A stretch of 64,000 nucleotides of DNA, from NCBI GenBank assembly GCA_944391745.1, contig CALXUS010000004.1:21231-85230 (forward strand), in the 5' to 3' direction. A model generated the notes under the pieces. It was not told where the DNA came from and ran no database searches. It worked only from the letters and a program-made list of their open reading frames with translations. This document shows, piece by piece, positions 44,071 to 48,611 of this stretch (the first letter of the stretch is position 1; each line of letters opens with the position of its first letter). The translations under genes were made by a program, and so were the position numbers. Origin of the DNA: an uncultured Clostridia bacterium. GTDB lineage: Bacteria; Bacillota; Clostridia; TANB77; CAG-508.

Positions 44071-44925
44071 TCAGCAGGAAAAAATGTTTTCGTAGCTAAT
44101 AAACTTTGACAACTCGGGTCCATAAGGATTTGCCATAGCATAAGGGCTGAATGTTTCTTCTCTTGAATTATTACCCATCATATTAGTAGGAATACTCGAA
44201 TGGATAATCAGAACTAAATGTGGATTAAGGATTTTGCTTAGTTCGTTCAATGTTACATAGTTAATGTTATCTCTAATATCGATAGGCATAACAATCTTTG
44301 TTGGATTGTCACACATTGCAACGATGTTGCTAATCACGTCCTTAATCTTTTCATATCTATTCTGATACGCACCCATTACACTAAGTCTTCTAAGAGCACT
44401 TTCACCCTCATAAAACCTGTCGTTATTAGCAGACCTTATGTTACCATAAATTGAATCAAGTTGTGCATAGATTTCCCTAAGCTTATAAGGAAAATTCCTA
44501 TTATAAAAAACATCAGAATCTTTTACAACATTTAATAATGCTGCGCATATATTCCCAAGTAAATCTTGGTTTTCATATCTGAACAGATTGGTTATTAAGG
44601 CATCGTTTCTCCTACGAATCCTTAAAATAGTATCAACAATGACCGCATCATGATTAATACCAAATACACCAATCATTCCATCTTCACAAGGATTACTTAG
44701 ATGTTGTTCAACACAGCTAGCTACAAGACAATATACTGCATGTAAATCGTGCGTGCCATTAGAGTTTCTGATATTTCCATTATAATCGGTATTATCCTCA
44801 TATTCAGGTTCATCGTAGTAGTCTATCTGAATTGGTCTATTCTGCCGACTTCTTGATTCTCTCCTTTCGTCTTCACCTCCTAGCCTTTGAGGAGGTGGAT
44901 CAAATAAAATTCTTCTTCTAGCCAT
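44071..44925 (-). CDS. Hypothetical protein with Arg/acidic disordered N-terminus (MARRRILFDPPPQRLGGEDERRESRSRQ...)
   Basis: 284-aa ORF, last gene of the AAA+ operon. It uses CGG in frame. Confidence 0.7.
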   Translation of the reverse strand: MARRRILFDPPPQRLGGEDERRESRSRQNRPIQIDYYDEPEYEDNTDYNGNIRNSNGTHDLHAVYCLVASCVEQHLSNPCEDGMIGVFGINHDAVIVDTILRIRRRNDALITNLFRYENQDLLGNICAALLNVVKDSDVFYNRNFPYKLREIYAQLDSIYGNIRSANNDRFYEGESALRRLSVMGAYQNRYEKIKDVISNIVAMCDNPTKIVMPIDIRDNINYVTLNELSKILNPHLVLIIHSSIPTNMMGNNSREETFSPYAMANPYGPELSKFISYENIFSC

Positions 44926-44956
44926 CTTTTGTACTCCTCCACATTAGTAAAGGATG

Positions 44957-46318
44957 TTATTCTATCAAAATATTTTTGGCTTTAGTTTTAAAGCCCTGTT
45001 TAAACGCCCCCATTTCAATAATTTCATTAACAAATTCTAAGACTTCATTAGTATACACACTAGCTAAATATTTTTTAGCCCTTGTGCAAGCCAAGTCATC
45101 TCTAGAATTACTAATAATTGTAACAATTTTTTCGAATTCTTTTTCAAACTCGAATTTTACTTTTGTATCCACTCCAGCTATATTGCTATATTTTTGAATG
45201 AATTCATCTGTTAATATTTTAGCTGGCATTTTCTTAAACATATAATATGCTTTAAGATAAGTGTCACTAATAGTTTCAGACTCTTCTTCAGCATTTGGAG
45301 CTGGATAACAGGTAGCATTAAATTCTTTCCGGATAACTTCCATGCGTCTGTTTGCAACTTCTTTTGGAACTTGGTTGCTCATTTTAGAGGCTGGAGTTCC
45401 ATCTACTTTTTCATAAGTTGCTACAGCAACATCATCAAAGTATCCTTGAGACAAGTATTTGACAAGATTTGTAAACTTTTCGTCAGTTTCTCCAGGGAAC
45501 CCAACAATTACTTCAGTAGAAATAATTAAATCAGGTCTGCATTTCCGAAGTAATAAGATATTATTAGTCAGTTCATCAATGTTATATTGACGGTTCATTG
45601 CTTTTAAGATTTCCCGGTCATTATGTTCAATATGAAGCATAATCTCACTGATGTTTTCATTTTCCTTTATTACTGAAATAATATCTTTCAAATAATTAGG
45701 ATGAAACCAACCAATGATAAATTGACTATTCGGAAATTTCTTTGCAATTATTTCCATCAGTTCTCCAAAAGCTCTATGATTATACAGGTCAATCCCATAT
45801 AAAGCTGTTTCTTGAGCTCCAGAAATACAAATTGTTGATTCTGTACTGTAAAGATCTTTTACTTCTTCAATAACTTGTTCCTTAGGTTTGCTCTTGTATT
45901 CACTTTTGCAAAGTTTCGGATAAACACAATAGCTACACTGTTGGAGACAACCTTCTGAGATAATGACGGTGTTTTGCTTAATAGATTTTTTGCGTGAATT
46001 ATTGTTCTCAAAGTATTTGATGACATTATTAAAGTCTACAACCTGAATTCCAGGAATATACTCGAGATCTTCACGATAAATCTTAGTTAAGCATCCTGTG
46101 ACAATAACTTTTGCATCAGGCTTAGCATGCATTTTTACATCAGCAATAACTCTGACAGAATATGCTCTATTGCTTCCAAAAGCACATGTATAAATAATTA
46201 TAACATCTGCTATTGTATAGTCAGTAGTTATATTGCTTTGTGGAATTTTGGCCAACAAAATGTTGGCTTTTTCTAAGTCTGCATGCATGTCATTACACAT
46301 AACTAATGCAATTTTCAT
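44957..46318 (-). CDS. Methylthiotransferase-family radical SAM enzyme (MiaB/RimO/MtaB-like) with a non-TRAM helical C-terminus
   Basis: N-terminal MTTase Cys triad (VMCND, YTCAF, TGCL), radical SAM CLQQCSYC, ...LHIEHNDREILKAMNRQY, IVGFPGETDEKF, and GTPASKMSNQVP. Confidence 0.85.
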   Translation of the reverse strand: MKIALVMCNDMHADLEKANILLAKIPQSNITTDYTIADVIIIYTCAFGSNRAYSVRVIADVKMHAKPDAKVIVTGCLTKIYREDLEYIPGIQVVDFNNVIKYFENNNSRKKSIKQNTVIISEGCLQQCSYCVYPKLCKSEYKSKPKEQVIEEVKDLYSTESTICISGAQETALYGIDLYNHRAFGELMEIIAKKFPNSQFIIGWFHPNYLKDIISVIKENENISEIMLHIEHNDREILKAMNRQYNIDELTNNILLLRKCRPDLIISTEVIVGFPGETDEKFTNLVKYLSQGYFDDVAVATYEKVDGTPASKMSNQVPKEVANRRMEVIRKEFNATCYPAPNAEEESETISDTYLKAYYMFKKMPAKILTDEFIQKYSNIAGVDTKVKFEFEKEFEKIVTIISNSRDDLACTRAKKYLASVYTNEVLEFVNEIIEMGAFKQGFKTKAKNILIE

Positions 46319-46320
46319 AA

Positions 46321-46896: not shown

Positions 46897-48506
46897 TCGT
46901 TATCTCCTCCAGTAGTAATAATTTTGCGACCGCTACGTCTTGCATGACCGTTAGACGATTCGGAATTTTCTTCCTTCTTCATAGTATTAGAGCTAGCATT
47001 TCTTACGCCATTGTTTTTCGCCCAAGAGCGAAGAGAATCAACAGTTGCACTCATAATACCTTGAGAAGAAGGATTAGTATTTTTCATGACCGAAATAATA
47101 TCATCAGCAGTAAGTTCCCGTTCATTATCTTCATAACTATTGAACATGGCACTTACAACTGCTTCCTCAATTTCGGCACCGGTAAAGCCACTACATTCTT
47201 CGGCAACCTTGTCAACATCCTCTTGTTCGAAAGTTCTCCCAATCTTTTTGAGTTGAATATTAACAATTTCCTTGCGCTCGTCTTCAGTGGGAAGGTCCAC
47301 AAAGAAGATTTCATCAAACCTTCCTTTTCTGAGCAATTCAGAAGGAAGAACATCGATGCGGTTAGCAGTTGCAACTACATAGACAGGAGAAGATTTTTCC
47401 TGCATCCACGTAAGAATGCTTGCAAACATTCTCGAAGAGACCCCGGAGTCATTCCTACCACTTGAATTTGCACCTGCAAGACCTTTTTCGATTTCATCAA
47501 TCCAAAGAACACAAGGAGCCATTGCTTCAGCTGTTTTAAGAGCTTTCCGCGTATTCGTTTCCGTATCGCCAACATAGCCACCAAAGAGTTTTCCCAAATC
47601 ACATTTGATGAGAGGAACACTCCACTGCTTTGCAAGAGACTTTGCTGCTAAACTTTTACCACAGCCAGGAATACCAACAAGCAATACCCCTTTAGGATAC
47701 GGCAAGCCATATTCACGTGCTTTGTCAGAGAAAGCTAAAAGCCTCTGACGGGTATATTTTTTGAAAGTTTGCATTCCTCCTACTTCAACATCCTTGGAAG
47801 TATTCCAAAACTCAAGCAGTCCATCTTTGCAGATAATTTGAGCTTTGACATCTTCGATTGTAGGCAAGTCGATAGTTTTAGTCTTCGAAATAGACGTTGC
47901 AAAAGCATTTTCGGCCTGCGTAATGGTCAAACCCAAAGAGATTTGGGATGCTTTTTCAACCAATTCGTCCATTTCATTAGGATTTCCCTTAATTTCAGAC
48001 CTGTAGTCTTCAAGCATCTCATTAAGAGTACTTTTAAGCTCATCTTTTGTCGGTAAATCAAGAGAAATGGACACTACATTATCTTCCCAGTCATTAGGAA
48101 TATCAAAATGGCTGCTAATAAAAATGTAATGTACGCCAATTCCACCGATTTTCTCGAACATGTCCCGTGCCGCACGCAAAACATCTGCACGCCTAAGGTA
48201 ATGGTGAAAATCCAGAAAACAAATAAGATAATTTCCCGAACTCAATTCCGAACCTTTCTGCATTGCATCCAAAGGATCAATGGCATCAGGGTTCACATCT
48301 TTTTCTACAAAATCATACTCCCCTTCTTCGTTTTTTTCTTTTGCAATTTTGAAAATGCCTTTTGTGCAAGACCACCCATACAAACCGTATCTGTAAGCCT
48401 TAGCAACATCATAACATTTTTCGATTGCCCGCATTTCTTCTGCCGTTTGAATTATCACAGAAGGGTATCCTGCTCTAATACATTCGGCAATAGACATTGA
48501 GCTCAT
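46893..48506 (-). CDS. Ycf46-like AAA+ ATPase
   Basis: IRAGYPSVIIQTAEE N-domain, YGLPYPKGVLLVGIPGCGKSLAAKSLA (Walker A), CVLWIDEIEK (Walker B), VVATANRIDVLPSELLRKGRFDEIFFVDLP. The 4-nt overlap (ATGA) couples it to the next gene. Confidence 0.85.
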   Translation of the reverse strand: MSSMSIAECIRAGYPSVIIQTAEEMRAIEKCYDVAKAYRYGLYGWSCTKGIFKIAKEKNEEGEYDFVEKDVNPDAIDPLDAMQKGSELSSGNYLICFLDFHHYLRRADVLRAARDMFEKIGGIGVHYIFISSHFDIPNDWEDNVVSISLDLPTKDELKSTLNEMLEDYRSEIKGNPNEMDELVEKASQISLGLTITQAENAFATSISKTKTIDLPTIEDVKAQIICKDGLLEFWNTSKDVEVGGMQTFKKYTRQRLLAFSDKAREYGLPYPKGVLLVGIPGCGKSLAAKSLAKQWSVPLIKCDLGKLFGGYVGDTETNTRKALKTAEAMAPCVLWIDEIEKGLAGANSSGRNDSGVSSRMFASILTWMQEKSSPVYVVATANRIDVLPSELLRKGRFDEIFFVDLPTEDERKEIVNIQLKKIGRTFEQEDVDKVAEECSGFTGAEIEEAVVSAMFNSYEDNERELTADDIISVMKNTNPSSQGIMSATVDSLRSWAKNNGVRNASSNTMKKEENSESSNGHARRSGRKIITTGGDNE

Positions 48507-48582
48507 CTACTAGCACCTCCAATATTATTGATAGAATTTGATGTACGAAAAAGATTCCATACTATCAAATTTGTACGGGATT

Positions 48583-48611
48583 ATTATATCACCTTACTTT
48601 ATTTATGTCAA
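48583..48611 (-). promoter_or_regulatory. Perfect consensus sigma-A promoter (TTGACA-17-TATAAT) for the AAA+ operon
   Basis: Minus strand reads TTGACAtaaataaagtaaggtgaTATAAT. RBS GGAGGTG precedes the ATG at 48506. Confidence 0.65.

Follow-up and report, generated by a model that had tools for sequence, protein, structure and literature searches.

The stretch of DNA analysed here, called the window below, comprises 64,000 nucleotides of contig CALXUS010000004.1 from an uncultured Clostridia bacterium and is AT-rich in its bulk (GC content of approximately 0.23-0.30 per kb). On its minus strand lies a cassette whose core is an operon of four open reading frames (ORFs). Read 5' to 3', these encode a Ycf46-type AAA+ ATPase, a small protein in which the domains DUF1257 and DUF2997 are fused, a radical SAM enzyme nearest to RimO, and a 284-residue protein that we call p4. 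What appears to be new in this cassette, judged from its sequences, is a methylthiotransferase (MTTase) whose substrate module is new and whose partners are obligate, set in a conserved group of genes that seems to match no described system. New here as well are the extension of the cassette past a second promoter to position 40610, the locus-variable modules that follow the core, and a short N-terminal peptide, the tag, which is common to partner proteins otherwise unrelated to each other. The features of the cassette are collected in Table 1.

Table 1. Features of the core operon and the accessory module, given in the direction of transcription.
Feature	Coordinates	Strand	Description or basis
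Core promoter, TTGACA-17-TATAAT	48583..48611	minus	TG extended -10; 12/12 consensus match
Core operon, four ORFs	44071-48506	minus	ORF list
Ycf46/phrog_8638-type classical AAA+ ATPase, 537 aa	46893..48506	minus	PF00004, AAA_lid_3, phrog_8638
DUF1257-DUF2997 fusion, 191 aa	46321..46896	minus	DUF2997 direct, DUF1257 via orthologues
RimO-nearest radical SAM methylthiotransferase-like enzyme, 453 aa	44957..46318	minus	UPF0004, Radical_SAM, AlphaFold2 model
p4, 284 aa	44071..44925	minus	N-terminal tag, disordered acidic linker, AAA+/ORC/RdrA-like alpha/beta domain
p4 codons 2-9, ARRRILFD	44899..44922	minus	Shared basic-hydrophobic peptide
Intrinsic-terminator-like hairpin 3' of p4	44006..44049	minus	20-bp stem, 14-bp GC-rich core
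Second perfect promoter, TTGACA-17-TATAAT	43923..43951	minus	Before the accessory module
fam4 accessory protein, 277 aa	43026..43859	minus	C-terminal ...YGELE
fam8 accessory protein, 103 aa	42697..43008	minus	
fam4 paralogue, 208 aa	42044..42670	minus	C-terminal ...FGELE
fam6 accessory protein, 465 aa	40610..42007	minus	Tag MAKRRIIVE, long coiled coil, conserved C-terminal domain
Terminator-like hairpin closing the accessory operon	40584..40603	minus	

The radical SAM enzyme is best described as belonging to a new MTTase clade, nearest to RimO, which keeps the criteria of the catalytic core, lacks TRAM and is predicted to methylthiolate. Pfam matches both UPF0004 (PF00919, E 1.5e-8) and Radical_SAM (PF04055), and among 32 family members the three cysteines of the motif C124xxxC128xxC131 are invariant, as are Cys45 and Cys76 of UPF0004, with Cys8 present in at least 90%. 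Neither TRAM model (PF01938, PF18693) matches the enzyme, whereas true RimO sequences recovered in the same search do carry TRAM. Pfam, cysteine conservation and the AlphaFold2 (AF2) model thus agree with the sequence-only reading of this DNA, which had proposed an MTTase with both iron-sulphur motifs and without TRAM. The family is discrete: its approximately 99 clusters align over their whole length at 40-72% identity, and the next matches below them are true RimO sequences, at E 1e-41 with a coverage of 65-70%. On the NCBIfam models the enzyme stays under every curated cutoff (TIGR00089, 198.1 against 251; RimO, TIGR01125, 179.8 against 357; MtaB, 142.8 against 357; MiaB, 131.7 against 355), the RimO model scoring above MtaB and MtaB above MiaB. 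The family profile finds Thermotoga maritima RimO in the PDB (4jc0, 193 bits, E 5e-56) well ahead of MiaB (102 bits), in keeping with the earlier appeal to RimO as precedent, and the PDB matches cover positions 21-331 only, ending at about 331-334. The AF2 model (predicted local distance difference test, pLDDT, 92.4) is aligned by Foldseek to MtaB, MiaB and RimO at a template modelling score (TM) of ~0.63 over 350-374 columns. Its C-terminus, for which a structure search had been suggested, holds in place of TRAM an all-helical bundle (residues ~335-453) that is unaligned to known MTTases; the charge of this domain is near neutral (mean +1.1) and the catalytic core is acidic. Elsewhere in the window, a minus-strand ORF at 56916-57821 shows weak similarity to the core of this enzyme (25% over 88 aa, E 4e-5).

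Of the three MTTase clades characterised so far, two modify tRNA, and the present enzyme could likewise methylthiolate a nucleoside of tRNA or rRNA, with the ATPase, the fusion and p4 remodelling or delivering a ribonucleoprotein substrate. Such a role would agree with the Foldseek ranking, in which MtaB and MiaB stand level with RimO, and with the position of the cassette within a ribosomal-protein operon in two loci. However, the enzyme has neither TRAM nor another recognisable RNA-binding domain, the charge of its two parts speaks against binding of RNA, and in the sequence profiles RimO is clearly ahead of MiaB and MtaB, so that we hold an RNA substrate to be improbable.

The ATPase looks, from its motifs, like a catalytically competent AAA+ motor with a substrate-translocating pore loop. 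A single classical AAA+ module (PF00004 at E 2.5e-32, plus AAA_lid_3) comes after a family-specific N-domain of about 250 residues that is strongly acidic (mean charge -12), and the module has Walker A (GIPGCGKS at 278), the pore loop (GYVG at 310), Walker B (VLWIDE at 333), RKGRFD at 393 and an intact arginine finger. Its assignment to the Ycf46 type, already made from the sequence, is based on comparison with phage and plasmid homologues and is borne out by these motifs and by a full-length match to phrog_8638 (E 1.9e-126, residues 7-515). The Thermovibrio plasmid pTHEAM01 encodes a full-length homologue (31% identity, E 4e-56, residues 10-514), and homologues are also encoded by a satellite phage of Streptococcus and by phages of Rhizobium, Pseudomonas and Mycobacterium; Pseudomonas phage SM1 is one of the carriers, and BFVD labels an AAA protein of SM1, which may be this homologue, as ycf46.

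The product of the second gene is probably an adaptor or cofactor of this ATPase. Its Ycf35-like DUF1257 part occupies residues ~1-113 and its DUF2997 part residues ~131-173. DUF2997 (PF11211) is matched directly in the window protein (E 8e-8, 32.5 bits with the cutoff at 24.1, residues 131-173) and in 17/18 orthologues, whereas DUF1257 (PF06868) is without a match in the window copy even at E <= 10. Since 16 of the 18 orthologues do match DUF1257 (best E 7e-8), the fusion call holds by transitivity; weak precomputed matches to the family also exist, and the N-terminal half matches phrog_20456 at E 4e-4. Of the fusion as first called, the DUF2997 half therefore stands by itself and the DUF1257 half stands through its orthologues. 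The protein also matches phrog_23133, and in the orthologues the N-terminus MSHF is invariant and Cys34 and Cys151 are conserved. The fused form is rare: when 1.84 billion representative proteins were searched, approximately 20 of the 229 relatives had a length of ~185-195 aa, the remaining ones being stand-alone DUF1257 proteins of ~125 aa. A solved structure of either DUF1257 or DUF2997 was sought and none was found.

p4 begins with MARRRILFDP and evolves fast, a database search having returned two relatives only; hidden Markov models built from the neighbouring genes of related loci define a p4 family whose members share ~15-25% identity and two motifs, 'IGVFGxNxD' and 'DLVxIVxS'. Pfam and PDB-sequence profiles gave no match to p4, and its recognition as an AAA protein by sequence was rejected, as hhalign gives 0.2% probability against the AAA family. 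In the AF2 model, which was built from a 3-sequence alignment, residues 1-58 are disordered and the remainder forms an alpha/beta core (pLDDT ~80 for the core, mean 65). Foldseek places this core closest to the ATPase domain of RADAR RdrA (E 4e-6, TMq 0.46-0.52) and near archaeal and eukaryotic ORC/Cdc6 (ORC2, E 9e-4) and BrxC, the range of E-values extending to 1e-3; the match in BFVD is not significant. A P-loop seems to be missing, because no more than three residues separate the strand 'MIGVFG' from the helix that comes next. We thus regard p4, with moderate confidence given the shallow alignment behind the model, as a putative Walker-A-less AAA+-like protein. The first description of p4, which offered no family for it, still holds for the sequence and is refined by the predicted fold.

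Loci with this gene set were collected by one genome scan, one metagenome scan and exact-protein look-ups, which gave 52 with a family-level gene for the radical SAM enzyme, all of them from uncultured gut or rumen Clostridia (e.g., Clostridium sp. CAG:245) or human-gut metagenomes. Upstream sequence of 2.6 kb or more is available for 45 loci, and in 43 of these the genes for the ATPase and then the fusion lie directly upstream of the radical SAM gene (the exceptions are L029 and L065), a count of non-independent events, as all loci are from one bacterial lineage; a p4 homologue is present in most loci. This neighbourhood survey, one of the checks proposed along with the sequence-only reading, finds the four-gene unit to be real and recurrent; the unit is, however, larger than was thought, as it continues past the second promoter to 40610. 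The same ATPase, DUF1257 and DUF2997 trio occurs without a radical SAM gene on plasmid pTHEAM01 of Thermovibrio ammonificans, Aquificota (L068, 63253-66170), and in Agrobacterium phage JP1, gp048-gp052 (L044), and the trio is thus an old, mobile module that exists independently of this enzyme. A phage-borne cassette was considered and rejected: neither 2.9 million viral contigs (IMG/VR) nor GenBank phages contain the radical SAM family, the fusion has zero tblastn matches in phages, and the BFVD search with p4 was without a significant match.

The flanks of the cassette vary widely and are mainly housekeeping genes (ribosomal genes, aminoacyl-tRNA synthetases, MutS, pyruvate kinase). Some neighbours recur, namely CotJ/Mn-catalase, MutS and Fic, so part of the distribution is vertical. 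In L001 (6949-13206) and L007, which belong to one species, the cassette is inserted between secY and adk of the spc ribosomal-protein operon on the same strand, the insert consisting of p4, the ATPase, the fusion, the radical SAM gene and three further genes. In the window itself, the plus strand at 39331-40567 carries cotJA-cotJB-cotJC, with the Mn-catalase (CotJC) called as pieces of 69 and 148 aa; this split call is found in all four independent contigs of the window organism (L035-L038) and might point to a frameshift, to a pseudogene or to something programmed. On the other side, at 48825-49557 of the plus strand and divergent from the cassette, a 56-aa ORF (putative antitoxin) precedes a Fic-domain protein with intact HPFREGNGR, the domain being confirmed by precomputed Pfam matches. 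In L003, too, a Fic gene is found at a distance of ~6 kb. The Fic pair had been taken as a hint of defence, yet it lies near the cassette in only 2 loci, and its presence is incidental.

The composition of the core sets it apart from its surroundings. Core genes have a GC content of 0.32-0.42 against 0.266±0.038 in the 57 other ORFs of the window, and a G+C content at third codon positions (GC3) of 0.24-0.40 against 0.150±0.045 (maximum 0.298); CGG accounts for 12/73 arginine codons in the core and for 7/555 in the other ORFs. The higher GC and the dozen or so CGG codons seen at first are thus supported by the statistics. The accessory module (40610-43859), unlike the core, has a native-like GC3 of 0.10-0.19. 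Core GC3 exceeds that of the flanks in 31/32 loci (offset 0 to 0.19), and it follows that the compositional anomaly belongs to the cassette and not to the window genome alone. The horizontal origin claimed from the CGG usage therefore keeps its foreign-like composition, but a simple recent transfer into the window genome is too simple in view of this general offset and of the recurring flanks. Overall the cassette looks like a lineage-restricted yet mobile or variable locus.

Both ends of the core operon are marked by the signals that had been seen at first sight. The promoter is perfect at all consensus positions, and yet it is one of 10 perfect TTGACA-N16-18-TATAAT sites in the window (7012, 22489, 28038, 33485, 36376, 37453, 39044, 43923, 48583, and 62879), 9/10 of them on the minus strand, where chance would give 0.28. 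Because such sites are abundant across the window, the core promoter is host-style and nothing unusual, and the host organism appears routinely to use near-ideal sigma-70-type promoters. The hairpin behind p4, described earlier as 14 bp of GC pairs, is confirmed as the core of a longer stem, with a folding energy of -35.8 kcal/mol (z = -8.5 against shuffled sequences). In the 5' leader of the core operon (~70 nt), two inverted repeats, TTGATAGAAT/ATACTATCAA and AATTTGAT/ATCAAATT, are interleaved at 48528-48571. They are possibly an operator; a hairpin acting as riboswitch or attenuator was rejected (RNA folding z = -1.6, non-significant), and an Rfam search of the window returned three tRNAs only.

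It could be argued that the four genes do not form one system and are the decaying remnant of a mobile element, adjacent by descent only, since the host range is narrow and shared ancestry could inflate the synteny counts. Conservation largely refutes this. Gene order persists where protein identity has fallen to ~42-50% and where the flanks are quite different, and ORFs and catalytic motifs are intact throughout; promoter and terminator are also intact. The tight packing noted at the outset is also plain from the ORF coordinates, the three junctions in 5' to 3' order being a 4-nt ATGA overlap, which couples the genes translationally, a 2-nt gap and a 31-nt gap. We thus consider a remnant hardly tenable.

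Downstream of the core the loci differ. The module of the window, fam4-fam8-fam4-fam6, is conserved beside the core in 12 loci; the C-termini of fam4 have an invariant Glu within [E/D/N]-[L/F]-E, and fam6 has a weak DivIVA match. Searches of fam6 and fam4 against PDB profiles gave coiled-coil noise only. Other types of downstream region contain a protein of ~420 aa (fam7), Zn-ribbon-like and signal-peptide proteins, a protein of ~190 aa (fam9), or tandem paralogues of cytoplasmic BspA-type leucine-rich repeat (LRR) proteins (LRR_5, E 7e-50) with a conserved basic C-terminal tail. Profile-profile comparison of fam4 to fam9 with each other and with the core showed zero similarity. Up to five LRR paralogues stand in tandem around the radical SAM gene in L023, L025 and L027 (e.g., L025, 7119-12679); they are without signal peptides and share the tail FKSF(S/N)GVIRxNLIAxKKK.

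A property common to several of these otherwise unrelated proteins is the basic-hydrophobic tag at the N-terminus, with the consensus [KR][KRQ]x[IV][IL]x[FP] (for example MARRRILFDPPPQRLGG). It appears in p4 as MARRRILF, MAKRKILI, MKIKRVIRF or IRRKIIF, in fam6 as MAKRRIIVE or MKKRNIQF and in fam9 as MPRQIIP or MSRKIIP, and in all three families a low-complexity linker, polar or acidic, comes next. A position-specific scoring matrix trained on p4 N-termini only and tested against 464 other ORFs separates fam6 and fam9 from these (Mann-Whitney p = 7e-9), 12/15 of them scoring above the 95th percentile. Also above this percentile are fam24, encoded upstream of the ATPase gene in LRR-type loci, f34, and a protein with an FGE-sulfatase domain (PF03781) that adjoins the radical SAM gene in L065 and has the N-terminal sequence 'TRVIRFNRP'. 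p4 and fam9 are mutually exclusive and divide the two clades between them, and nearly every locus has one tagged protein. Two further ideas were tried and dropped. A likeness to S12 around Asp88, compared by eye, fails as the tag is without a conserved Asp, and a cluster for a ribosomally synthesised and post-translationally modified peptide is excluded since the tagged proteins are folded, with 175-475 aa, and the loci are without a conserved protease or transporter.

The two loci without ATPase and fusion genes help to place the tag. In L065 (6867-9374) and L029 (7741-9119) the radical SAM gene still has a tagged protein directly upstream, the FGE-sulfatase-domain protein in the former and a fam9 fragment in the latter, and the neighbours of the trio in phages and plasmids are untagged; this weakly ties the tag to the radical SAM enzyme. 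Engagement by the ATPase would fit equally well, considering the disordered leader of the tagged proteins and the strongly acidic N-domain of the ATPase. The same loci bear on the possibility that the ancient trio is the functional machine, as in cyanobacteria, phages and plasmids, and that the radical SAM enzyme is either a client of the trio or supported by it; the fusion might, for instance, be a redox or Fe-S partner that feeds electrons or clusters to the enzyme. Radical SAM enzymes require a reductant, and the fusion has its two conserved cysteines. The trio does exist without the radical SAM enzyme in phage JP1 and on pTHEAM01, and cyanobacterial DUF2997 and Ycf35 cluster with the ferredoxin Fed7 (PMC4284462). 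On the other hand, two cysteines per chain make no recognisable cluster motif, the cassette is without ferredoxin or flavodoxin, and tagged proteins remain with the radical SAM enzyme where the trio is absent (L029, L065), for which reasons such a machine seems decidedly improbable.

From the anatomy of the cassette, the co-occurrence of its genes, their folds and the tag, we infer a substrate class, a docking role of the tag and a biological role, and the best reading that we can offer is a client-directed machine for protein methylthiolation and remodelling, possibly engaged in biological conflict. We give this reading a probability of roughly 40%. The Ycf46-type motor, the DUF1257-DUF2997 fusion and the RimO-like MTTase would be its near-invariant core, around which p4, the coiled-coil fam6, fam9 and the FGE-sulfatase-like protein, all bearing the tag, would be diverging partners. 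The N-terminal peptide would serve as docking tag, the tagged proteins being clients or specificity subunits, and the helical domain of the MTTase may replace TRAM as receptor of substrate or adaptor. The ATPase with its DUF1257-DUF2997 adaptor would then unfold, thread or present the substrate, and the output would be a methylthiolated or remodelled protein. The disordered residues 1-58 of p4 are the kind of initiation region that AAA+ translocases need. The flavour of conflict comes from the fold of p4 near RdrA, ORC and BrxC, the tandem LRR_5 proteins, the GC3 offset and the variable insertion sites; sensor-like modules (LRR, FGE-like, pseudo-ATPase) together with a foreign composition suggest a role in conflict or defence.

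Several observations weigh against such a machine. The flanking genes are mainly housekeeping ones, and the cassette is without a classical effector. Short forms of the radical SAM enzyme (~368-372 aa) in L024, L028 and L029, all loci of the fam9 type, lack most of the helical domain that is supposed to receive the substrate. The genes neighbouring the trio in phages and plasmids are without the tag, and the short contig L026 shows zero tag proteins. Alignments of tag and linker revealed no conserved Asp or other obvious modification site. Lastly, the fold of p4 is modelled from 3 sequences and hhalign shows no link of p4 to AAA, and what PADLOC matches is generic AAA similarity to IetA only.

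If conflict is placed at the centre, the cassette could act in defence or abortive infection, with the diversifying partners p4, LRR proteins, FGE-like protein and fam9 sensing an invader, the ATPase relaying the signal, and the RimO-like enzyme methylthiolating a host or phage target, such as a ribosomal protein, to arrest growth. Ribosomal protein S12 is the natural target of RimO, the fold of p4 resembles the defence ATPases RdrA and BrxC, sensor-like modules vary and occur as tandem paralogues, the composition is foreign-like in many hosts, the distribution is patchy and lineage-restricted, and in the window a Fic module adjoins the cassette. Against defence stand the generic nature of the PADLOC similarity, a position outside recognisable defence islands with the housekeeping flanks given above, the lack of a nuclease, NADase or pore-forming effector in the cassette, and a strong, apparently constitutive promoter with no evident control of toxicity. 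A defence system of this kind is possible, though on the whole unlikely. Slightly further from what we would expect is a bolder form of the protein-directed reading, in which the enzyme would represent a fourth class of MTTase that finds its clients through a portable N-terminal peptide instead of TRAM and would form, with the Ycf46-type unfoldase and the DUF1257-DUF2997 adaptor, an unrecognised modification-based immune or conflict system of gut Clostridia.

The cassette matters in several respects. A different substrate-binding domain, together with a near-obligatory link to an AAA+ ATPase, suggests a new class of substrate or a new way of presenting a substrate to a radical SAM enzyme. The cassette also gives the widespread Ycf46/DUF1257/DUF2997 trio an enzymatic read-out, a predicted mark of +46 Da, and so makes it experimentally tractable. 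The bolder reading above, if true, would for the first time offer a way into the mechanism of the Ycf46/Ycf35/DUF2997 trio, long an orphan in cyanobacteria, plastids and phages. An N-terminal tag on otherwise unrelated partners is a concrete and testable recognition code. Since human-gut and rumen metagenomes commonly contain the cassette, it may also affect the biology of abundant uncultured Clostridia.

Comparison with known systems supports the earlier impression that this is not a system one can name. No description of the cassette was found in the literature searched, and in PADLOC-DB v2 the ATPase domain alone is matched (IetA and TRIP13 models), the fusion, the radical SAM enzyme, p4 and ten accessory proteins remaining unmatched. 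IetA of the IetAS system is the best PADLOC match of the ATPase, but the match is confined to the generic ATPase domain. With RADAR RdrA, ORC/Cdc6 and BrxC, the likeness is that the predicted alpha/beta core of p4 superposes on their ATPase domains; unlike them, p4 is without Walker A, its domain measures only ~190 aa and sequence similarity is undetectable. Membership in RADAR failed, as the RdrB deaminase occurs in zero loci, and a BREX partner is likewise absent from them. The Pup-Mpa proteasome and ClpX with ssrA share with the cassette a classical AAA+ ATPase with pore loop and clients having a short terminal tag and an unstructured initiation region, whereas the cassette is without a protease partner and its tag is N-terminal and basic-hydrophobic.

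The Ycf46/Ycf35/DUF2997 set of cyanobacteria, red-lineage plastids, phages and plasmids has the same full-length ATPase architecture and the same two small domains; in the window these domains are fused and the set is joined to a radical SAM enzyme and tagged partners. Published links of that set are only to CO2 use and to a stress/stringent-response operon. To our knowledge, the characterised functional classes of MTTase are MiaB, MtaB and RimO only, all of which use TRAM. MiaB and MtaB share the two-cluster MTTase fold with the window enzyme, but their sequence similarity to it is lower and they bind tRNA by the TRAM domain that it lacks. RimO, the methylthiotransferase of Asp88 in ribosomal protein S12, is assisted in Escherichia coli by YcaO. 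The window enzyme differs from RimO in a score far under the cutoff (180 against 357), in a helical domain of ~120 aa in place of TRAM, in a separate clade beyond a clear gap, and in its obligatory link to the AAA+ ATPase and the DUF1257-DUF2997 fusion. It shares with RimO the UPF0004 domain with three auxiliary-cluster cysteines, the CxxxCxxC motif, the same predicted fold and the best sequence match, and in RimO there is a precedent for a protein substrate together with an accessory partner that uses ATP.

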